From contig OX597830.1 in assembly GCA_951406725.2 (NCBI GenBank), forward strand, positions 23,746,001-23,810,000: a stretch of DNA of 64,000 bases, in the 5' to 3' direction. The notes beneath the pieces are model-generated. The model worked only from the letters and a program-made list of their open reading frames with translations, ran no database searches and was not told the origin of the DNA. The position numbers and the translations under genes are program-made. This DNA is from Octopus vulgaris (taxonomy: Eukaryota). Shown piece after piece: positions 3,160-50,134 of the stretch. Position 1 is the stretch's first letter; each line of letters starts with the position of its first letter.

Positions 3160-3368
3160 TATCATGTTGATTCGCTAGCTTCTGCACGCATTTTCTTTCT
3201 CTCCTTGTTTCTTTCCGTGTTTCTTTTCTGTGTATCTTTCTGTTGAAGAGCGTAGGCTCGAAATGTAAAAGACTTGTTTTATTTTTATTCCTGAGCGCCA
3301 TACTAATACAATTGTTTGCTTGTATTCCACCTGCCTTCGTCTTTGTTTATTTTCATAAAGCTTCCCGT
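3160..3368 (+). mobile_element. Penelope-like 3' fragment (family P4) with minimal type I hammerhead-like motif at 3235-3272
   Basis: TCTTT-CTGTTGA-A-GAGC gtag GCTC-GAAA-TG-TA-AAAGA; ends on (TA)n; homologous to 6169, 24732 and 24976. Confidence 0.7.
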
Positions 3369-3406
<38 letters not shown>

Positions 3407-4536
3407 GGTGATAAATAAATAAAAATATATGCATACATACAAACATATATGTACGTACCTACATCTACATGTATATATACATGCATATATAAATAATTAT
3501 ACGTGAGTACAGGACATCACAATAAGACGTAGAAACGGAAAAACAAAAAAAACAAAAAACAAGAAAACGAAAAACGAAAAACAATTACAGGACGAGCTAC
3601 ACAAGGACAAAACCCCCGTCATCAGCTGTCGCTAGTGGAGTCAGGCATGTTTCGAAGGCAGAGACAGAACACTAATCCAATAGGCCTTCCTGCGAGAGAA
3701 TTAAAATAAAATTCCAAGCAGCGGGGCAAAATGAGTACGAACACGAACAAGACGTAACAATAAAACTGCAAAAATAAAAATACATGTACAAAAAATACAA
3801 TTAATTACAAAACGAGAAAATAAAAAGAGAATACAATACAGGGAATCAAACACACAAGAGGACGAACGAAAAAGCCTTTTTCTGGCATAGACAAACAATA
3901 AAACTGCAAAAATAAAAATACATGTACAAAAAATACAATTAATTACAAAACGAGAAAATAAAAAGAGAATACGATACAGGAAATCAAACACACAAGGGGA
4001 CGAACGAAAAAGCCTTTTGCTGGCGAAGACGAAGGATATTGTATCAGCGCGTGGAGGCAGTCTTTTCAGTAGTAAGAATCACGTGTAAAAGAAATTTTAT
4101 TTTATAAGCTGGCAGTAAAGAAGAAGGAAGGAGGAGAGGGACACGCGGCGGAGAGAGAGAGGAGGAGTGGGAGGGAGAGAGAGTGAAGAGGTTAAAGCAA
4201 AGGGAGAGAATTCCGCATCTTAAATATAATAATATAAAAAAAGGAACCAAGAAGTGGAACGAAACGACGAATCGGAACGAACCTGATGCGGGCGCTGTCA
4301 GACAATAAGGTGATAAATAAAAATATATGCATACATACAAACATATATGTACGTACCTACATCTACATGTATATATACATGCATATATAAATAATTATAC
4401 GTGAGTACAGGACATCACAATAAGACGTAGAAACGGAAAAAACAAAAAAAACGAAAAACAAGAAAACGAAAAACGAAAAACAAGAAAACGAAAAACAATT
4501 ACAGGACGAGCTACACAAGGACAAAACCCCCGTCAT
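3407..4536 (-). mobile_element. Non-coding (TA)n-flanked element (family P2): ~902-bp unit plus ~230-bp terminal direct repeat (pseudo-LTR-like); permuted hammerhead motif at 3613-3672
   Basis: 3407-3622 repeated at 4309-4536; internal ~138-bp duplication 3756-4032; (TA)n on both sides. Confidence 0.7.
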
Positions 4537-5213
4537 ATATATATATATATATATATATACTACAATATATACACTGACACGTAATACACACGTATTTATA
4601 TGACGCACACACACATAAAATAAAAATTAAGCAGAAAATGGAGAAATATTGATCAACAACAATTGATTAACATCGATTATTACTTTTTAATGCAAAACTT
4701 TATCCCATCTAACAGCCGTTTCTGCTTCCAATGTTCTCCAGTGTTGCCATTGAAAATGCTGAGAATAATATGCGTCATATTTTGCAACACATCCGATCTG
4801 GAACTTGGAGTTTCATCAGAGTGAAGAAAAATACATAAAAGAAAAATACAGAAAAGAAAAGGAAAGAGCGTTGAGAAGAAGAACGAAAGCTTGATATATT
4901 TAAATCACACCATTTTACAGTATAACGCTTCAGAACGTTGAGTAAATGACTAAACTAGAAATATTAATTGGTGCGCTAATCTTTCTTTAGGGGTAACAGG
5001 GTGTATAAATAATAAAAAAGGTAAAATAAATACTTTACCATAACGGGATACACCAATAGGTCTAGAAAAAGAGGGAGCGATAGTGTCATAACGTTTTGAA
5101 TTAATCATAATAGTTCTTAAGATTATGTTAATAGTAATAATTAATAGTTATTTCTAACAAAATGCCCATCAATTAATTATAATTATTTACTTACTGATAT
5201 GTCTATCTGTCTA

Positions 5214-8957: not shown

Positions 8958-10006
8958 ATGGAGCCTGTTGAGTGTCGAGCAGTGATCCGGTTTTTGTATT
9001 TGAAAGGACGCACACCACGGGAGACTTTTGATGAAATGAAAGTAACTTATGGTGATGATGCCCCATCATATGACCTTGTAAAACGCTGGCATCGTGAATT
9101 AAAACATGGTCGGAACTCTGTGGAAACAGCTCCCAGATCTGGTCGCCCCCTTCTGCCATTCATGAGGCATTTGTCCGTCAAGTTGAGGCTGCCATTTTGG
9201 AAGATCGACGCATAACTATTCGCCAAATAGCCCATTAGGTCAAGATTAGTACCAGGTCTGTGGAAACTATCATTCATGACCATTTGCATATGCAAAAGGT
9301 GTCTGCCAGATGAATTCCCAGGCTGCTCACACCTTTCCAGAAGCAAGAACGCGTCGAGTGCTCGAGGATGAATTTGGAGATGTGCCAAGAAGATGAGTCA
9401 AAATTTTTCAAAAGACTGATTACACAGGATGAAACCTGGGTCCATCACTATGATCCAGAGACCAAAGCCCAGTCAATGCAGTGGAAGCACCGTGACTCAC
9501 CTCCTCCAAAGAAGGCAAGGGTTCAGCCCTTCGCTGGCAAGGTCATGCTCACAGTCTTCTGGGACCAGGACGGAGTAGTGATGACAGATTTCCTGGCAAA
9601 GGGTACCACAATTACAGGAGCCTATTATGCTTCACTTTGAGGCAATTAAGAGAAGCTATCAAAATCAAGAGGCGGGGCTAGATCAGCAAAGGCATCCTCC
9701 TCCTGCAGTACAACACTCCAGTCCACAACTCGCGTGTCGCCAGATCAGAAGCACAAGCGTGCGGCTATGAACTCCTCCCCCACCCCCTACTCTCCTGACC
9801 TTGCACTCTCTGATTTTCACCTCTTCCCATCCATGAAGTTGTTTTTGAAAGGAAAGCGTTTCCCAGATGATGCAGCCTTGATTTCTGAAGTCACGTCGTG
9901 GTTGGAGGACCAAGCTGGGGTCTTCTACAAAAACGGTCTCCAGAGCTGCATCAAATGAGGGGAGAAATGTGTAACTCTGGGTGGTTCCTATGTAAAAAAA
10001 GACTAA
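8958..10006 (+). pseudogene. Mariner (DD34D-type) transposase pseudogene; element ~8850-10035, no TIRs seen
   Basis: HTH MEPVECRAVIRFL..RSGRP, (W)IPRLLT, TQDETWVHHYDPETK, KVMLTVFWD, PPYSPDLALSDFHLF; frameshifts and stops. Confidence 0.95.
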
Positions 10007-10066
10007 TAACTGTGCCAAGTTTCGTTGCTCTACTAATAGTGGTTTCGTCTCTAATTTAATATTATA

Positions 10067-10125
<59 letters not shown>

Positions 10126-10478
10126 AAGAATGAAAACAGTAAAATTACCACCGGGTGTAACACTCATTCATTCTTCCAGAATCTATAAAATAATTTACCC
10201 ATCAAACTCTTTGAACACATAGTATCCATTGGACTAATGATTATGATTCTTTGTTTAGTTTTGTTCTGCAAAATAGTACGTTTCCGTTGCAATAAATAAA
10301 ATTTTTTTAAATTGTAAAATCTTTATGAAGGAAGACATTTTAGAAAAGTTTGAAGAATATTTTATTATGAGCTCATTTTATTATGAGCTCATTTTTCTGT
10401 TCAGAAAATTCAAGAAATATACGGTGAGGTAATTTTCTTTGTTTCGTATATTCCGTTTGATAATTTGCCATAGTTCTA

Positions 10479-10581
10479 TTATGACGTCATAAACGGCCGC
10501 CTTTTCTTATAAATAGAAGGCGTAATTCGATTTTGTCTTCATAGCATTGATATATTTCACCGACTTTTAAGATAGGTAAGT
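10479..10581 (+). promoter_or_regulatory. Candidate Pol II promoter (CRE + TATA) with short non-coding first exon and splice donor
   Basis: TTATGACGTCATAA 10479-10492; TATAAATAG 10508-10516; predicted start ~10540; AG|GTAAGT with GT at 10576. Confidence 0.5.
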
Positions 10582-11197
10582 AATTGATTCTACTCACACA
10601 TGTGCACACATACACACATGGACGCACGCGCACACATACACAAAAATATGCACGCAATTTTGTAGTAGCGTGTATCGATCTTGAGAGCTGTCAATACTCA
10701 AACAATGGTCCTTAGTGTAGGAGAAAATATAAGTTCCAAAGGAATAGGCTTGCTACGATTTTTCACCCATTTTCCGTAGTGACCTCCCTAGAAGAAATTA
10801 GTTTAGTATTTGCTCAGCCCATTCGTGTTTGAATGCGAGTGAGTCCCCTACTGTTACTCTCGAAGGCCGTTTGTTGTAGTCGATTCATTGTAAGTCAGCC
10901 TGCACAGAGTACGGTTGGTTAGTTGGATCATAATGTGCTCTAGTAACGGTTATGCTTAGATAATGAAACCGCAGGAGGAAGATAAGTTTCCTGAATAGAT
11001 TCAGTTATATCACATTAGTGTATAATATAAAAAATTATATATAAATATTTGTTCATGTGAACCTGGTTACAAAATCTACCGTTTAAGTTCGACGGGACTT
11101 GAATAAGAATTATTCATTTATATCAGAAGTTATTAAAGAGTAAAATTATGTAGTCGGTTTTATGAACCTTTGAGTTCATGCTGGTTGGTGTCATAAC

Positions 11198-11427
11198 TAT
11201 TTCTTTACTACCCACAAGGGGCTAAACACAGAGAGGACAAACAAGGACAGACAAACGGATTAAGTCGATTATATCGACCCAGTGCGTAACTGGTACTTAT
11301 TTAATCGACCCCGAAAGGATGAAAGGCAAAGTCGACCTCGGCGGAATTTGAACTCAGAACGTAACGGCAGACGAAATACGGCTACGTATTTCGCCCGGTG
11401 TGCTAACGTTTCTGCCAGCTCGCCACC
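11198..11427 (-). mobile_element. Full-length SINE family N (tail A) with target-site duplication
   Basis: Flanked by CTGG(T/C)TGGTGTCATAAC on both sides. Confidence 0.9.
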
Positions 11428-11679
11428 TGGCTGGTGTCATAACATAGTTGCAAGGTGTACGTGCTGTACTAGGTAACCGTATTGACTCTTAACCAGGCTC
11501 TTTCAATGCAGGAAACCTGGGAGTTACAACTATGAAGCATTTTTATAATTAAAAAATATATATATATTTCATATATATTTTAGTATTTTGTGAGTTGTTT
11601 GTGTTTGTGTGTAAGACATATGATCGTATATCTGCCTGCCTGTATCTGTATGTCCGTGTGTGAAAGTGCATGTACGTGT

Positions 11680-12946
<1,267 letters not shown>

Positions 12947-13287
12947 TGTGTGTATGTATATATATATATATAAACACACACACAAGTGTGTGTGTGTGGG
13001 GTGGTGGTATTGGTGTGTGCTTATGTTTACTTAGAAAGTAAAGACGGGTGAATTTCCGATTCGCAGTTTGTCCAGCGTGCTAACGATTCTGACATCCAGC
13101 AGCCATTGAATTACTCAATAAGCGTAATATAGGTTAAGAATAACATATTTAGGTTAAATCAGAGGCTAATGTAATCGGAAAGAAAAGCAATCACATTACA
13201 TCCATTTACATCTTAATCTTAATTCATAACTATCGTATTTATCAAATTTTCTCTACAATTTACCAATACATTTTAGTTACGAAACTG

Positions 13288-13461
13288 AAGACGTGGCTGT
13301 GGTAAGAAGTTTGCTTCCCAAACACATGGTTCCAGGTTCAGTTTCACAACATGGTACCTTGGGTCAAGTGTCTTCTAATCTAGCCTCGTACCGACCATAG
13401 CCTTGTGAATGGACTTGGTAGACAGAAACTGAAAGAAGGCCGTCGTGTGTGTGATTATATA

Positions 13462-13493
<32 letters not shown>

Positions 13494-13619
13494 AAATATT
13501 AGGGAATAAATCCAAATTTACAAGGAAAAATCAGATTTAAGATTGAATCCAATTTTATAGTAAAATATTATATTATATCAAATTAGAGACAAAACCATAA
13601 TAGTTTTGTCTTTAATTTG

Positions 13620-13656
<37 letters not shown>

Positions 13657-13851
13657 ACTTACATAATATCAAGGTTTGTTTCATTCTTTTGTTGTCTTAA
13701 TATTTCTATCAATATACATATATATATATGTGCGTGTGTGTGTGTGTGTGTATGTGTGTGTGTGTGTGTCTGTGTGTTTGTATGTGTGAGTGTGTGTCCC
13801 TCACCACTGTTTCACAACCAGTGTTGGTGTGTTTACGTCCCCGTAACTTAG
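13288..13851 (+). mobile_element. SINE family M with an insertion in its microsatellite, 3' end replaced by LINE sequence
   Basis: Head 13288-13446; body resumes ~13795 and ends at CCCGTAACTTAGCGG. Confidence 0.7.
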
Positions 13852-15022
13852 CGGGAGCCATCATCAACAACAAATGGTGTTTTGCCCTCAAGAGAGCAAT
13901 AAAAGCTGAAGCGATTAGGTATAGCAAAGCGCTATCAATAGTCAGAAACAGAATAGAGAGTGAGTTAGTTAAAAAGCTAGAAGAGGCAATTAGAAGTGGC
14001 ATCGCATCCGATGTTTTGGCTGCGAGGTTGGCCCTCGACCAACATTTCAACGCCAAACACGAAGAATGTACTGTCAGGGCTAGGGTGGCGGAGGTACAAC
14101 AGAAGGCTCGGGTAACGGAGGCGCAACAGGGCAACAAAGCTACCATTCGGTCTCTGGTGGATGAACAGGAGCGCGAATTATTCGAGCCCGGTAAAATGTA
14201 TGAGACCTTTCAGCAGCATTTTGCTCGACTGTTCGGGACGAGTGGCGAGCGAGAAAGCAGGGTGGACTTCAATGTCTACTTGCATAGCCTGCTACGACTC
14301 TCGGCAACAGAGGCAGAGTGTTGCGAAGATGCCATCACGGTGACGGACGTGCGGGACGCGATGGCAGAATGCTCGAGGGACAAATCGCCGTGTTTGGATG
14401 GTCTGCACTACGAGCGTTAGAGTTGTATGCCAGACTTGTTTGGAGACGTCTTGGCAGTAGTGTACTGCAACTGGTAGCAAAACGGGAGCCTCCCCGGTTT
14501 TGTGAGCCGAGAAGCTGTAATGCCGCTGAAGAAAGATCCAAACAAGGGGAACGTAATAGATAACTTTAGGCCCATTACTCTGCTCAGTGAAGATTTGAAA
14601 ATTTTGGCCAAGGTATTTGCCAACAGGTTGGCGTTTGTCCTAGAGAAACTTGTCGACAAGGCTGTCGCGTCCGTCATCTACTACCGTCTGACCGTCGTGC
14701 CTTGTCTTGACCCCACCATCACCAAATTGGAACGCATCCTCTTCCCCTTCTTGAGGAAAGGAAACGTTCCGAAAGTCGGGCGATCCGTTTGCTGCCAACA
14801 CCTGCTAAAAGGAGGGTAGTAGTGGCTCGAGAGTCAATACGTACAGATGCGACGAGAGAAAGCATCCCTGACGGACCGAAAGTGCAATGTCGAAAGGTCT
14901 CGTTAGAGGCCCGTTCACGCGAAATACCGAACGGATGGTTCTGTACAACGTAGCTATCCAGCTGCGGAAGACGGGACCGAAACCAGCCGCTATGAGGACA
15001 GCCTCCAAGTATCGACGGTCTA
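13852..15022 (+). pseudogene. Tx1/L1-clade LINE ORF2 remnant, rearranged with an inverted segment 14815-15022
   Basis: KSPCLDGL, NFRPITLLSEDLKILAKVFANRL on +; GFGPVFRSWIATLY..VRQGCFLSSHLYVLTLEPL on -. Confidence 0.9.
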
Positions 15023-15782
15023 CCCAATGCCTTAGATAAAAAATAACGACGGAATCTGAGCTTCCATAGTGTTAACTCACTGATATTGCATACTTAACTT
15101 GAAATGTATCTGGTCTTTTTAACATTAGTTGTTTGCGAAACAAAACGTCTGATGACTGCGATTTCAAGGACATGAAATTGGAAACTTTAGGAAATTGAAT
15201 CATCTCAAATGAAACCCTTTCAATGTTTATTTAATATATTATATTTCATCACATTTTAAAATAGTTTTTTATACTAATGCATTTGTTTCTGTTAGACCAT
15301 TTAATTAAGTTGACTTTATTGGCATATGCAATTAACAGTATTGTGTAAACATTCGGTCATTTGGTATGCAATTAAACGTTACCTTTCTGAGATTATGTGT
15401 GTGTTGTGTGTACGTGTGTGTGTGTGTCTGTGTGTGCGTCCGTGTGTACACGTATGTATGTGTATGTATGTGTGAATATACACACACATTTTTATATTTG
15501 CTTCTACGTATACATGTGTATATAATAAGTACGTATATATGTATACACTCTCTCTCTTTAACAAACACACACATGCATTTACACACTCACACATATATTT
15601 ACACACAAACTCATACATTTACACACTCACACATACATTTACACAAAAACACACATACACATACACACACAAATGCAAACACATTCATACTTACACACAC
15701 ACGCGCACTCACACATACATTTAAGCACAAACATACACACACACACACAGACAAACGCACACAAACGCAAACACATTCACAC

Positions 15783-15826
<44 letters not shown>

Positions 15827-15851
15827 ATACATTTAGACACAAATATACAAT

Positions 15852-15882
<31 letters not shown>

Positions 15883-16193
15883 ATACATTTAGACACAAAC
15901 ATACAATCACACACACACACACTCACACATACATTTAGACACAAACATACACGCACACACAGGCACAGACACACATACACACACACAGATATATATATGT
16001 TCGCAAAGATATGAGTGTCTTCAAAGTTTTGTTGTTTGTTGGCTTCGCCAGACTGTAAAATGGCGGACGGCACAAACTGGCAAATGACGGTCAACTTTTT
16101 CCGCGTAAAAATGTTTGACTCTTTACTTAAACGTTTTCATATGATCTTTCGATTAATGCTTAACTCTTTTTTCACGTATAACACTTCATAAAC

Positions 16194-16234
<41 letters not shown>

Positions 16235-16359
16235 GTCAAAGTACACAGATATATAAAACGGAAATGAGCTGAAAGACCGCAGACTGGCCAGTGGCATGTA
16301 TACGAATAACACAGACATGAATTGGTTTAACAAATATACATACATAAATACATACACAA

Positions 16360-16950
16360 ACATACATACAATTATATACAGATATGTATTTATATGCGCA
16401 CATAGATATATGCACGTACAACTACACACTCGCACACAAATATACCTATATATATACATACATCCATACATGCAAATCCACACACACGCACCTACATACA
16501 TACCTATAATTATATACACATACATATGTATTTAGATGCGCACATAGATATATGCACGTACAAATACACACTCGCACACAAATATACATATATATATATA
16601 CACACACATACTTATATACATACATCCATACATGCAAATCCACACACACACACCTACATACGTACCTATAATTATATACACATACATATATATTAGATGC
16701 GCACACAGCTATATATATGCACGTACAAATACACTCACACACATATACCTATATATATATACACACATACTTATATACATACATCAATAGATGCATATAC
16801 ACATACACACACACCTACCTACATACATACAATTATATACACATACATATATTTAGATGAGCACACAGCTATATATATGCACGTACAAATATGCACTCAC
16901 ACACACATACCTATACGCATACATCCATTCCTGCAAATATACACGCACAC
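16360..16950. repeat. ~4 copies of a 140-165-bp microsatellite-derived higher-order repeat
   Basis: Recurring TTAGATGCGCACA..TATATGCACGTACAA and CACCTACATACA..ATAATTATATACAC. Confidence 0.7.
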
Positions 16951-17056
16951 ATATATATATAGCTAGACGCGTACACACATACATATGCACATATACACAC
17001 ACAAATACACACACACTCACACACATACACACAAACTCACGTACACACACACACAC

Positions 17057-17100
<44 letters not shown>

Positions 17101-17191
17101 ACACACACACAAACAGGTGTATTTCGACAAACCATTATCGTCTAAAGTATATTCGTTTGTTGAATTCTCCTCACGGCTACTAAAATTCCAA

Positions 17192-17321
17192 TTATTACTA
17201 TTATTATTACTATTATTATTACTATTACTAGTATTACTATTATTATCATTATTATTATCATCATCATTATTATTATTATTAATTTTTATTATTATTATTA
17301 TTATTGTTATTATTATTGTTA

Positions 17322-17365
<44 letters not shown>

Positions 17366-17378
17366 ATTATTATTATTG
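17192..17378. repeat. (ATT)n microsatellite
   Basis: Seen directly. Confidence 0.95.
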
Positions 17379-17673
17379 TCTCCCCTGTTTTTATCTTGGT
17401 TTCAACTCTTTAATCTGTGACTTTCTCTTTTTTTCTTTCATACGATACAGGAGAAGCTTGTAGAAACTATAGAAAACATAACGTATGCAGAAATTTATCC
17501 ATTTATTTATTTATTTATTTATTTATTATTTCACATTGATTTTTCTTTGATATTTTTTTTTCTACTTTTCGGTGTATTTTAAGACTTATATTATTTAGTT
17601 TAAGATGGTCTGTTCGAATATTGAAAGGATTACTATTCCGTAGACTTATCTTTAACCTACAGCGATTGTTTGT

Positions 17674-17727
<54 letters not shown>

Positions 17728-18006
17728 AGATATATATATATAGACAGGAAGGAAAAAAGAACAAAAACTCACCTATATCATCAGACGCGATCAAGTAAAT
17801 CTAGTTATTTTAACTGTACTGTAGAGATAAATCGGTTAAGTAAAACTATATATGATTAGGAGCAACCGTAACACGACCACTGCTGCGGAGATTGAGATCG
17901 AGCAAATGAAAGAGCCCCTAGGAGGTCACTTGAACGATTACAAATAGCAGCCAAATATATCTCAAACTACATTCAGCTGTATAAAAGAATGCAGTTGGGT
18001 TTAAGT

Positions 18007-24639: not shown

Positions 24640-24918
24640 GTATAGAGAGAAAGTAGCTAGTTAGAAAATCTCTGTAAGAAATTAAATTAGTAATGATACT
24701 GAGAAGCAATGTTTATCATTAATGTCTATCAGTCGCCATGATAGATCGGTAACCACTACACACATTTTTTTCTCTCCTTGTTTCTTTCTGTGTTCCTTTC
24801 CGTAGAAGAGCATAGGCTCGAAACGTAGAAGACTTTTTCAATTTCCGAGCGTTATACTAATACATCTGTTTTATTTTCTACGCCACCTGTCTTCGTCTTT
24901 GTTTATTTCGTGAATTCT

Positions 24919-24978
<60 letters not shown>

Positions 24979-25174
24979 ATCATGATTCATCGTTAGCCAC
25001 TACACACATTTTTTCTCTCCTTTTTTTCTCTCCTTGTTTTTTTCTGTGCCCCTTTCTGTAGAAGAGCGTAGGCTCGAAACGTAAAAGACTTTTTCTATTC
25101 CTGAGCGTTATAATAATACATCTGTTTGTTTTGTACACCACCTGTCTTCGTCTTTTGTTTTTTTCGTAAACTCT

Positions 25175-33258: not shown

Positions 33259-33897
33259 AAATGGGACAAGAACGGAAAATTTCCAGATAGACGATACAAA
33301 AACACGGACGGGTCATTCGAAGCCTTTAATTTTCAGTCAAGAACCGGATCATCCTCGCAATTTCGGCTGATTAATGTTGAGATTGCTCCAATCTGGCCAG
33401 CCCCAAGGAAAAACTAAGCTAAGAGCAATAGATGCCTTGCAAAAAAGCTTCGAATGTATACGAAACAAGGACGGAAAAACGGACAATATTACACGAATAT
33501 AAATACAAAAATAATAATAAAACAGTAAAATAGTAATAACATACATAACAACAGGCGTCTTTCGACTGGAGACGAATTGATTTCAGTTGGCGTGTTGGGA
33601 ATTAAGCCTTACAGCAGAGGAAAAGTGTCGATGTGGCAGCGACTGCGGCCAAACGCAAAAAGGCCAGCAGACGGCCAAAGGTCACGCGAGAAGAGAAGAG
33701 AGAGAAAAAGAGGAACAAAGGAGTTAAGGAGGGGGAGAAGAGAGAGAGCGAGAAAGAGCAAGAGAGAGTGTGTAGACGGAAGAATCAGGGAGTGGCGAGA
33801 AAAAGGGAGAGACATGGACAAAGTGAAGTGCAAAGTAAGAAAGGCAAAGAAATGTGAGAGAGGGTGGAGAAAGAGTGTTGAAGAAGTCGTACAACAT
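33253..33897 (-). mobile_element. Diverged single copy of the 760-bp family P1 unit between (TA)n tracts
   Basis: Reverse-complement homology to the 35650-37588 units. Confidence 0.85.
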
Positions 33898-35649: not shown

Positions 35650-37584
35650 GTCGAGGCTAGACACATTTTTTTCTCTCTTTGCCCCAAGGCATTTTTCTAA
35701 TGCGCCAGCTCGAAGTTCACCCGTCCTGTCGAAAAGACGCCTGTCTGTGACGTCCTGTTTTTGTTATTATTATTATCATCATTATTGTTTTTCCGTATTT
35801 TCGTATTCTTATTCGTGTTATCATTATTGTTTTTACGTATTTTTGTATTCTTATTCGTGTAACATCGTCCGTTTTCCCGTCCTTGTTTTGTATATATTCG
35901 AGGCTTTCTTCCAAGGAATCTAATGCGCTTGGCTTAGATTTTCCTTTGGGGCTGGCCAGGTCGGAGCAATCTCAAGATTAATCAGCCGAAATTGCGAGGA
36001 TGATCCGGTTCTTGACTGAAGATTGAAGGCTTCGAATATCCCGTCCGTGTTTTTTGTATCATCTTCTAAATGATTTGCGTTCTTGTCCCAGTTTGTATTT
36101 TTTTTTACATATACATATATATATATAGCGACGCCCGTACCCTTTTTGGTCTTGTATGTAAGTACATATTTTCTTTAAACTTGGTACAACTCTATAACAC
36201 TGTCTCTCTCTTCCCCCTCTCCTACATTTCTCTGCCTTTCACACTTTGCACTCTACTTTGATCTGTCTCTTTCTCTCTCTCTCTCTCTTCTCCTCCTCCT
36301 TTGTTCCTTGTTCCCCTTTTTTTCTCTCTTCATCTGTCCCTCTTTTCCTCTCTCTTCTCCTTACACGTGGCTAACTGACGGACTGCTGTCCTTTTCGTGG
36401 TCAGCAGCCGTCGAGGCTAGACACATTTTTTCTCTCTTTGCCCCAAGGCACTTTTCTAATGCGCCAGCTCGAAGTTCACCCGTCCTGTCGAAAAGACGCC
36501 TGTCTGTGACGTCCTGTTTTTGTTATTATTTTCATTATTGTTTTTACGTATTTTTGTATACTTATTCGTGTTATCATTATTGTTTTTACGTATTTTTGTA
36601 TTCCTATTCGTGTAACATCGTCCGTTTTCCCGTCCTTGTTTTGTATATATTCGAGGCTTTCTTCCAAGGAATCTAATGCGCTTGGCTTAGATTTTCCTTT
36701 GGGGCTGGCCAGGTCGGAGCAATCTCAAGATTAATCAGCCGAAATTGCGAGGATGATCCGGTTCTTGACTGAAGATTGAAGGCTTCGAATATCCCGTCCG
36801 TGTTTTTTGTATCATCTTCTAAATGATTTGCGTTCTTGTCCCAGTTTGTATTTTTTTTACATATACATATATATATATATAGCGGCGCCCGTACCCTTTT
36901 TGGTCTTGTATGTAAGTACATATTTTCTTTAAACTTGGTACGACTCTATAACACTGTCTCTCTCTCCCCCCTCTCCTACATTTCTCTGCCTTTCACACTT
37001 TGCACTCTACTTTGATCTGTCTCTTTCTCTCTCTCTCTCTCTCTTCTCCTCCTCCTTTGTTCCTTGTTCCCCTTTTTTCTCTCTTCATCTGTCCCTCTTT
37101 TCCTCTCTCTTCTACTTACACGTGGCTAACTGACGGACTGCTGCCCTTTTCGTGGTCAGCAGCCGTCGAGGCTAGACACATCTTTTCTCTCTTTGCCCCA
37201 AGGCATTTTTCTAATTCGCCAGCTCGAAGTTTACCCGTCCTGTTGAAAAGATGCCTGTCTGTCACGTCCTGTTTTTGTTATTATTATTATCATTATTGTT
37301 TTTACGTATTTTTGTATTCTTATTCATGTTATCATTATTGTTTTTACGTATTTTTGTATTCCTATTCGTGTAACATCGTCCGTTTTCCCGTCCTTGTTTT
37401 GTATATATTCGAGGCTTAGATTTTCCTTTGGGGCTGGCCAGGTCGGAGCAATCCCAAGATTAATCAGCCGAAGTTGCGAGGATGATCCGGTTCTTGACTG
37501 AAGATTGAAGGCTTCGAATGTCCCGTCCGTGTTTTTTGTATCGTCTTCTAAATGTTTTGCGTTCTTGTCCAAGTTTGTATTTTT

Positions 37585-37588
<4 letters not shown>
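35650..37588 (+). repeat. Tandem array (~2.5 x 755-760 bp) of non-coding family P1, one permuted hammerhead motif per unit
   Basis: Units start at 35650, 36410 and 37165; motifs at 35966-36031, 36719-36784 and 37448-37513. Confidence 0.92.
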
Positions 37589-37652
<64 letters not shown>

Positions 37653-37662
37653 TATATACATA

Positions 37663-38506
37663 TACAGATGTGATAGCTAAATTGTCGCCACAACTTCAAT
37701 TTCGCGCATGCACATAGTTTGTTTTTGATATTGTCGACTACAAATTATAGTAGGGTCGGTTGAGCATCTTCTGTGAGAAAAAACAGCACCATGACACTAT
37801 TCGCTCTGCCAGAAATTTGGAAACAACATGCTGTACTGCTTGGCTTTCGCGCCAGAAGTTCCAATACGAACATTTCAGAGTGTTTGGGTGGCAATCTGAG
37901 GAAAGTGCAATCTGAGGGAGATAAACATCAAACATCCAGTCAACATCCTGGTGTTTGGAATGATCACTAGTAATGACGACGGTAGGCCTCCATTCATCTC
38001 CCCACCCGGCCTCAGACTCAACACAGTGGCCAACATCAAGTGCCTGAAGGAGGTAGTGCTGTCCTGGGTCAAGAGGGTGGCTGCTGGAAGACCCTGTGTC
38101 TAGCAACAGGTCTGTATACCATGTTACAGAGGAAGGAGAACACAGTCATGATTGTCAGACAATTTCTGAAACCACATCACCCCTAACATCTGGTCAGCTA
38201 ACTCCGTAAACTGCAACCGCCTTATGTGTGGGCCGCAGTTGAGCGAGAAGCCAACAAAATTCCCTGTAACACCAAAGATGAACTGAAGACAAAGATTATG
38301 GGAGCATTCACCAACACCAACAAGGAGACCATCCAGAAAAGTTGCAGGAGATTCTGAAGTCGTCTGGAGGCCGTGGTTGAAGATATTGGCGATTTTATCG
38401 AATAAATTTACTCTTGGAGTAAAGAAGATTTGGTAAATATATCTGTTAAAATGAGATGTCAGTGTTATTTTCATTTTTGTGTAATTTAGACGACAGTTTA
38501 TTCACC
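37663..38506 (+). mobile_element. Internally deleted DD37D (maT-like) Tc1/mariner element, copy A
   Basis: KHPVNILVFGMITS, decayed QQD..PC and W..NS..CN motifs with ~37-aa spacing, SRLEAVV..GDFIE*. Confidence 0.8.
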
Positions 38507-38865
38507 ATATATACATATATATATAATATATTCACACCGACATATATATATATATATATCTTTGTGTGTGTGTGTGTGTGTGTGTGTGTACATGTGCATC
38601 TGTGTGTGCGGTAAGATGTTTGCTTCCCAGTCATAAACCTCAGGGTTTCGACCACTGTATGACGCCAAGGACAAGTGTCTTCTTCTATGATCTCGAGTCG
38701 ACCAAAACCTTGTGAGCCAATTTGTTAGACGGAAACTGAAAAGAAGCCCGTTTTACCTATGTGTTTGTGTGTGTGTGTGTGTATGTGTGTGTGTGTGCGT
38801 GTGTATTTGTGTTTGTCCCCGACCACTGCTTACAAACCAGTGTTGGTTTATTTACGACACCATAA

Positions 38866-38933
<68 letters not shown>

Positions 38934-38936
<3 letters not shown>

Positions 38937-39737
38937 CAAGATGTGATAGCTAAATTGTCGCTACATTGTCGACTACAAATTATAATAGGGTCGGTTGAGC
39001 ATCTTCTGTGAGAAAAACAGCACCATGACACTATTCGCTCTGCCAGACATTTGGAAACAACATGCTGTACCGCTTGGCATTCGCGCCAGATGTTCCAATA
39101 CGAACATCTCAGAGTGTTTGAGTGGCAATCTGAGGACATTGCAATCTGAGGGTGATAAAAATCAAATATTCAGTCAACATCATTGAGCTTAGAGTAATCA
39201 CTAGTAATGACGACGGTAGGCCTCCATTCATCTCCCCACACGGCCTCAGACTCAACACAGTGGCCAACATCAAGTGTCTGAAGCAGGTAGTGCTGCCCTG
39301 GGTCAAGAGAGTGGCTGCTGGAAGACCCTGTGTCTAGCAACAGGTCTGTATACCATGTTACAGAGGAAGGAGAACACAGTCATGATTGTCAGACAATTTC
39401 TGCGACCACATCACCCCTAACATCTGGTCACTTAACTCCGTAAACTGCAACCTTATGTGTGAGGCGCAGTTGAACGAGAGACCAACAAAACTCCCTGTAA
39501 CACCAAAGATGAACTGAAGGCAAAGATTATGGCAGCATTCACCAACATCAACAAGGAGATCATCCAGAAGAATTGCAGGAGATTCTGAAGTCGTCTGGAG
39601 GCCGTGGTGAAAGTCATTGGCGATTTACTGAATAAATTTACTCTTGGAGTAAAGAAGATTTTGGTAAATATATCTGTTAAAATGAGATGTCAGTGTTATT
39701 TTCATTTTTGTGTAATGTAGACGACAGTTTATTCACC
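38934..39737 (+). mobile_element. DD37D element copy B (part of a local duplication)
   Basis: Shares the deletion, stop codons and 3' flank with copy A. Confidence 0.8.
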
Positions 39738-39804
39738 ATATATACATATATGTATAATATATTCACACTGACATACATATTTATATATATGTGTGTTTGT
39801 GTGT

Positions 39805-39836
<32 letters not shown>

Positions 39837-49476: not shown

Positions 49477-50134
<658 letters not shown>

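Follow-up and report, generated by a model that had tools for sequence, protein, structure and literature searches.

A motif on the minus strand of a 902-bp Penelope-like element in the window, which is the whole 64,000-nt stretch of Octopus vulgaris DNA analysed here, is very probably a real and selected RNA structure and, as family comparison and folding suggest, most likely an active hammerhead ribozyme with a split core. The predicted ribozyme (3614..3726, minus strand) comprises six helices (I, II, III, T, IV, and V). As read from sequence comparison across families, stems I, II, III, and T pair and covary, the 5′ strand of stem II (II5′) lies upstream of the predicted cleavage site, and hairpin V abuts II5′. 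The insertion bears the hallmarks of a Penelope-like element (PLE), and in the genome the same motif follows remnants of Naiad reverse transcriptase (RT). A non-circular order of the hammerhead blocks, S-G-C, has already been published as type SGC (Eckert, 2023; PMC10085705), and the four-block, six-helix split core was not found in print. If active, the split core would break the stated assumption that CUGANGA and stem II are inseparable in the best-studied small ribozyme, and would move non-circular RNA permutations from anonymous metatranscriptome contigs to animal genomes with a known carrier. It would also give a testable answer to why Naiads seemed free of hammerheads, which bears on the need for ribozymes in PLE retrotransposition. 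Residue numbers used here (A9, G10.1, and so on) follow the hammerhead numbering.

Layout and predicted fold of the motif

Read 5′ to 3′ on the minus strand, the strands follow the order IV′, V, II5′, T5′, S, G, T3′, I-CUGANGA, and IV. The upstream strand of helix IV (IV′), CCCCG (3722..3726), is predicted to pair with 3618-3614 at a pair probability of about 0.6 and with moderate family support, and is followed by hairpin V (3690..3721, pair probability about 1.0), which abuts IV′ and G10.1 without an unpaired base on either side. Next come II5′, GAAGGC (3684..3689, G10.1 being 3689), assigned by covariation and folding and located upstream of the cleavage site, and the 5′ strand of helix T, the I-II interaction helix (3676..3683), in which seven of the eight pairs with 3639-3632 can form, as against all eight in many sister copies of the 902-bp element. 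Block S (3663..3672) consists of the 3′ strand of stem III, GUGU (3672-3669), U17 (3668), and the 3′ strand of stem I, CUGUC (3667-3663), and the predicted cut likely falls between 3668 and 3667, behind a GUU triplet. Block G (3647..3659) holds the 3′ strand of stem II, GCCUUC (3659-3654), GAAA (3653-3650), and the 5′ strand of stem III down to 3647. After the 3′ strand of helix T (3632..3639) stands half-block C1 (3619..3630), made of the 5′ strand of stem I, GACAG (3630-3626), and CUGAUGA (3625-3619), and then the downstream strand of helix IV, CGGGG (3614..3618), which overlaps the strand that a preliminary description of this DNA had assigned to stem II.

In the window copy, the GCCUUC before GAAA thus has a perfect partner in GAAGGC upstream of the cleavage site, and the CGGGG after CUGAUGA pairs with CCCCG. 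The minimum-energy fold obtained with ViennaRNA includes II, IV, and V, and gives the upstream stem II a pair probability of 0.88; the folding z-score of the window fragment, under a fold model without pseudoknots, is an unremarkable -0.1. A first candidate for helix IV, pairing of the G-run with CUCUCG just upstream of stem II, was rejected once these letters turned out to belong to hairpin V.

The letters, strand, and block order given in the preliminary description for 3672-3613 of the minus strand agree with the sequence on checking, and its linker between stems I and II is short, as in the published type SGC (PMC10085705). Its argument against chance also held: a descriptor allowing all six block orders has a single match in the window, the noted motif in S-G-C order, and 60 local dinucleotide shuffles gave no SGC match and one loose GCS match. 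The upstream half, that is II5′, helix T, hairpin V, and helix IV, had not been seen. The motif reaches 3726, beyond the 3613..3672 first described, and the fragment proposed for a self-cleavage assay (3595-3700) would lose IV′ and half of hairpin V. With this upstream half present, the architecture differs from plain SGC and is unreported in the texts consulted.

The same six-helix layout with different stems is found on the plus strand at 35893..36037, in a copy of the repeat family P1 with its core at 36016. Further P1 copies include a second with its core at 36769 and a third at 37498, which is damaged; the copies at 36016 and 36769 pass a descriptor with the upstream stem II. It had been claimed that a non-circularly ordered hammerhead core is common to families with different stems, which is what we find, and that the 902-bp element is unrelated to P1. 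Their stems do differ, but the shared six-helix layout and spacings make unrelatedness doubtful. Damaged or truncated P1-type copies with mutated cores are also seen at 33260-33560 (minus strand), 37165-37585 (plus strand), and 49830-49953 (plus strand).

The Penelope-like carrier and its link to Naiad elements

The motif resides in an insertion (3407..4536, minus strand) with (TA)n on both sides, at 3369..3406 by its 3′ end and at 4535..4571 by its 5′ end. It is built of a 5′-truncated tandem copy, or pseudo-LTR, followed by one full unit of a non-autonomous, Naiad-type PLE. The 902-bp element of the preliminary description proved real: the unit occupies 3407..4308 (minus strand), with a fixed 3′ end at 3407 and an internal 138-bp duplication (3756-4024), and the predicted cut lies 261 nt upstream of this fixed end. 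The pseudo-LTR (4309..4536, minus strand) begins inside the CUGAUGA core and therefore holds no complete ribozyme, the insertion having only one. At 20-85 nt from its 3′ end the element holds a long, AT-rich, imperfect hairpin (3425-3490 and 4323-4388, both minus strand); it has weak matches to miRNA models of Rfam and could be a recognition or initiation signal.

Genome-wide, 1011 candidate copies of the 902-bp unit were found, of which the 40 scored are 96-100% identical, and a strict pattern for this subfamily gave 182 genome matches against 0 for the control. Of 30 fetched loci, 18 share one 3′ junction, just ahead of (TA)n, and 5′ ends vary; several contain partial tandems, alignment shows inversions in 2, and an 88-nt tail is present in 2, so that the fixed 3′ end, 5′ truncation, pseudo-LTR, inversions, tail, and microsatellite target of Penelope-like elements are all represented. 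With Naiads the element has in common the (TA)n preference, 5′ truncation, pseudo-LTR tandems, inversions, a tail, and a motif that also stands at the 3′ ends of Naiad_Obim and Naiad_Ovul; it differs in being only 902 bp long and non-autonomous, in a tail of 88 nt versus 30-40, and in showing no sequence match to the Naiad-RT families among the fetched loci, and the accessible parts of the Naiad report describe no hammerhead fold (PMC8557442). Non-LTR retrozymes and minimal type I PLE hammerheads are likewise non-autonomous, tandem, and PLE-derived with one hammerhead per unit, but, as far as the available portions of these reports go, they carry type I hammerheads in tandem units of 150-450 bp, whereas here a pseudoknotted four-block form occurs in units of 750-900 bp (PMC7229834; bioRxiv 10.64898/2026.07.22.740005); the latter uses type I descriptors only.

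According to the accessible text of Craig (2021; PMC8557442), Naiads lack canonical hammerheads, eight of them including Naiad_Ovul being marked "HHR_half_core," and the Naiads of cephalopods are old remnants. The same blocks as in the window motif are seen at the 3′ end of the Naiad_Obim consensus, and a pattern derived from this end has 405 genome matches versus 0 in the control. A Naiad RT remnant was found upstream of one Naiad_Obim-type motif in the octopus genome, and a database homologue of this remnant has an N-terminal GIY-YIG domain followed by RT, the Naiad order. Of 30 Naiad-RT loci, 13 are followed within 1.5 kb by a core in the same orientation, and the 17 without a full core in this 1.5-kb stretch include 4 with a damaged one; for one locus (L213) the listed core match is spurious, but a match to the Naiad_Obim pattern lies inside the locus. 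A scrambled split core would explain why Naiads have been thought to lack hammerheads.

Searches of the genome with the RT fragment and two database homologues, the last of them with a stricter first pass, returned broken copies and no intact Naiad ORF, and 14 lower-identity loci contained no long PLE ORF. A word-indexed protein search for an autonomous partner gave no match, and Pfam recognised none of three genomic fragments. Blastn found no match between the 902-bp unit and the Naiad-RT families among the fetched loci, in which other ribozyme-bearing repeats did match; no protein gene was seen in the 902-bp element, and its tentative assignment to the Naiad clade is based on the ribozyme architecture and (TA)n target that it shares with genomic Naiad remnants. 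Young non-autonomous families (96-100% identity for the best copies) thus coexist in the genome with decayed Naiad ORFs only. In DNA of other sources, viral contigs gave no match and a metagenome scan gave one 14-residue match, which was not used.

Outside the octopus genome, snippets of the published consensus file show the split-core layout by eye in Naiad_Amil, Naiad_Aacu, Naiad_Anas, Naiad_Obim, and Naiad_Ovul (corals and octopus), and in three header-less entries which by file position belong to a box jellyfish, an acanthocephalan, and a crustacean (Craig, 2021; PMC8557442). Six snippets from the nematode part of the same file (File S5), of which Nbra-1, -2, and -3 are identifiable, read by eye as plain CSG with a long I-II interaction helix, and no such core was seen in the bivalve snippets. 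This inspection covered 55 of 62 CTGATGA, 26 of 43 CTGAAGA, 19 of 23 CTGACGA, and 9 of 25 CTGAGGA words, those split between lines being missed. Two bivalve entries of File S5 have another conserved 3′ motif that by eye resembles rows of the twister ribozyme. It is more likely than not that Naiads of several animal phyla encode active non-circular hammerheads. Those of nematodes would be of CSG type, and those of cnidarians, cephalopods, and probably arthropods would have the four-block form, with a core opened between A9 and G10.1 that a four-way junction restores.

Covariation across the genome and competing explanations

The whole octopus genome was searched with a stem-free pattern, CGAAA-N18-30-CTGANGA, with the reversed pattern as control. 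The genome has 44,081 matches to this pattern versus 8,942 to the control. The first 100 genome-wide matches, which cover the first 4.2 Mb of one chromosome, were all fetched, and stems I and III are present in 41 of them (shuffle mean 2.8, max 8), the other 59 lacking block S and representing chance matches or 5′-truncated or decayed copies. An upstream stem II exists in 30 of the 41 cores (shuffle mean 7.6, max 16); in 24 of the 41, helices IV and V are found in addition (shuffle mean 2.5, max 8). As a negative control, 123 like pattern matches in 120 viral loci gave none with stems I and III, and 20 unselected 10-kb stretches (a random 200 kb of the genome) gave 2 cores versus 1 in 15 shuffles. 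Extrapolation of 24-41% of the 44,081 matches suggests roughly 10,000-18,000 largely intact copies, sampled from one chromosome end; if true, this would be among the most abundant ribozymes in the genome, with intact copies on the order of ten thousand.

For covariation, 21 representatives were picked by eye from 22 prepared, L066 being left out as 5′-truncated, and aligned with MAFFT. The upstream stem II is 97% paired in this alignment, a figure inflated by the choice of rows for intact folds and by kinship among them, with 31 double-sided cells and 0 of 500 shuffles as high; RNAalifold, unprompted, predicted the upstream stem II and no other helix. Among 14 distinct sets of stems, most positions in I, II, and III are occupied by several types of base pair, and the NUH triplets comprise AUC, AUA, GUC, GUA, and GUU. 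The pairs G10.1-C11.1 and A15.1-U16.1, CUGANGA, and GAAA were required by the filters, so their invariance is no evidence.

In helix T, the bases that extend the upstream strand of stem II at its 3′ end pair with those lying 5′ of stem I; of 30 cores, 25 score at least 5 here (shuffles: mean 4.0, max 12), and scores are 6.0 within families against 3.5 across them. Helix T is the I-II interaction helix of SGC ribozymes, placed where the upstream model needs it. Helix IV, anchored on V alone, scores at least 4 in 11 of 30 cores, with a mean of 3.25 versus 1.97 across families and 1.14 after shuffling; in both of these analyses 21 of the 30 cores are P1-like, and rows that are related cannot count as independent. 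Helix IV is pyrimidine/purine-biased, often with U.U mismatches at its start, shows a mismatch by eye in the Naiad_Ovul-type family, and is imperfect in both octopus consensus entries. Helix IV is the weakest part of the predicted fold, in part borne out by these sequence comparisons.

The strongest competitor of the active split core holds that the fold is real and selected, and non-catalytic or barely catalytic, a hammerhead-derived signal such as a protein-binding or initiation site. Covariation could be explained by selection on structure alone, and a break between A9 and G10.1 is without precedent in the literature examined, helix IV being variable as well. Against this stands the excess of about 35,000 genome matches for exact catalytic words at the right spacing, the non-G position 17 and varied NUH triplets, both partly imposed by the filter, the same core by eye in Naiads of distant animals, and the CSG order, also by eye, of nematode Naiads, since CSG examples from metagenomes do cleave, as the available text reports (PMC10085705). 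We consider this alternative unlikely.

Less probable still is the fold of the preliminary description, a plain type SGC in which stem II is GGGGG/CCUUC with an extra C after A9, and the upstream pairings would belong to a storage form without activity. Copies of P1 fail its descriptor because no stem II is possible downstream of their CUGAAGA, which led to a closer look at this stem. The downstream stem II can form in the window copy with 5-6 pairs, 2-3 of them G.U, P2/P3-like families retain a G-run after the core that allows about 4 pairs, and HRIMA-1 likewise has one extra base after CUGAUGA in its published description (PMC10085705). However, it passes in 1 of the 41 cores, compared with 30 for the upstream stem II, and in P1-like families it would consist of 0-1 pair; in the 21-row alignment it is 50.5% paired with 6 double-sided cells and no double-sided excess, 259 of 500 shuffles being as high. 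In the window copy its pair probability is 0.00 and its duplex energy -5.3 versus -8.0 kcal/mol for the upstream one, and it is the upstream strand of stem II, not the G-run, that helix T extends. By covariation and folding, the stem II first described is probably wrong.

Most improbable is an active core with IV and V as dispensable flanks, a nicked hammerhead held together by II, T, I, and III or acting between tandem copies, for although helix IV is least conserved, many copies are 5′-truncated within V, and other PLE hammerheads reportedly cleave as dimers, in many families 0-2 unpaired bases separate IV′ from V and V from II5′, IV and V recur together far above the shuffle maximum of 8, and all strands are present within one copy of these 750-900-nt units.

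Relation to known hammerheads and proposed mechanism

By sequence the split-core motif has the hammerhead core of CUGANGA, GAAA, and NUH, and stems I, II, and III with covariation, along with the pairs G10.1-C11.1 and A15.1-U16.1, both imposed by the filter. It lacks the circular C-G-S order of hammerhead types I, II, and III, its order being S-G-C. In the predicted fold A9 is not joined to G10.1 directly or via 1-2 bases, as in an uninterrupted block C (PMC10085705), and this interruption lowers membership of every described type, not the claim of a hammerhead-like working. Rfam returned no match in the window at the gathering score, and no hammerhead model was among its 23 weak matches.

As far as its available text goes, Eckert (2023; PMC10085705) reports that type SGC cleaves in vitro and is known from metatranscriptomes only, none coming from the genomes of known organisms, that the I-II interaction helix is needed for SGC-3 cleavage, and that SGC and CSG ribozymes cleave at rates of 0.004-0.2 per min. 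Type SGC, represented by HRIMA-1 and its variants, shares with the window motif the order S, G, I-CUGANGA, the short S-G linker, the interaction helix, and the cyclic order. In type SGC, however, II5′ directly follows CUGAUGA(U), whereas here it lies upstream of the cut, and IV and V join A9 to G10.1. Type CSG, known from two metagenomic sequences in the same report, has II5′ upstream of S and G and an interaction helix in common with our motif, but carries I-CUGANGA contiguous with II5′ at the 5′ end, where ours has I-CUGANGA at the 3′ end. Block C was assumed to be uninterruptible, and the descriptor required CUGAUGAG or CUGAUGAUG with a downstream stem II, according to that text (PMC10085705), so split-core motifs would be missed. 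Given that current descriptors and Rfam models miss the split core, ribozyme counts in invertebrates may fall well short.

The PK hammerhead also places the core in a pseudoknotted frame with an extra helix, and its A9.G12 stacks over G10.1-C11.1 (Zhan, 2024; PMC11300833). There, however, A9.G12 and G10.1-C11.1 form a short stem, a pseudoknot replaces helix II, the accessible text describes no break between A9 and G10.1, and its "helix IV" differs from the one named here. Within the mostly open-access full texts consulted, figures aside, we found no account of a split-core fold or of Naiad hammerheads (cf. PMC3088659, PMC13725137, PMC6765202, PMC10162972), nor a hammerhead in which a domain separates A9 from G10.1.

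We propose that in the split core the chain is opened between A9 and G10.1, and that IV and V would meet stem II and the A9.G12 pair in a four-way junction. In such a junction C11.1-G12 and IV′-V may run straight, A9-IV and V-G10.1 would cross over, and IV and V, by the usual stacking rule, may be stacked on each other beside the stack of stem II and A9.G12, so that the normal hammerhead geometry would be held. A viroid hammerhead tolerates one extra base after A9. The fold could then be regarded as a circular permutation of the S to G to C cycle of SGC and CSG ribozymes with its opening in block C: were A9 joined to G10.1, a chain opened after T5′ would be of type SGC and one opened after block G of type CSG. 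If this is true, the forms of this cycle would have interconverted by tandem duplication.

As for a role in transposition, two cuts in a tandem of pseudo-LTR and unit could release a unit-length RNA, the ends of which may stay bridged by II, III, T, and IV. A Naiad-type RT/GIY-YIG protein would then copy this RNA from an internal start into (TA)n. Both the tail and the fixed 3′ end would follow from internal initiation of reverse transcription, which the accessible account of a Poseidon PLE demonstrates (PMC11167929).

At five loci, members of different ribozyme-bearing families adjoin one another at common (TA)n tracts, as expected from a shared target. Elsewhere in the window, short hammerhead-like motifs in the ordinary C-G-S order occur at 3236-3280 and at about 24795-24830 and 25055-25090 (all plus strand) in a family of 256-bp tandem repeats; their stem II has 4 bp, letters of the core are changed, and they resemble the minimal type I hammerheads of PLEs, although Rfam does not report them. 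A 1-kb repeat is duplicated with 88% identity at 37589-38607 and 38867-39836, and about 14450-14600 reads by eye like the reverse-transcriptase coding sequence of a LINE.
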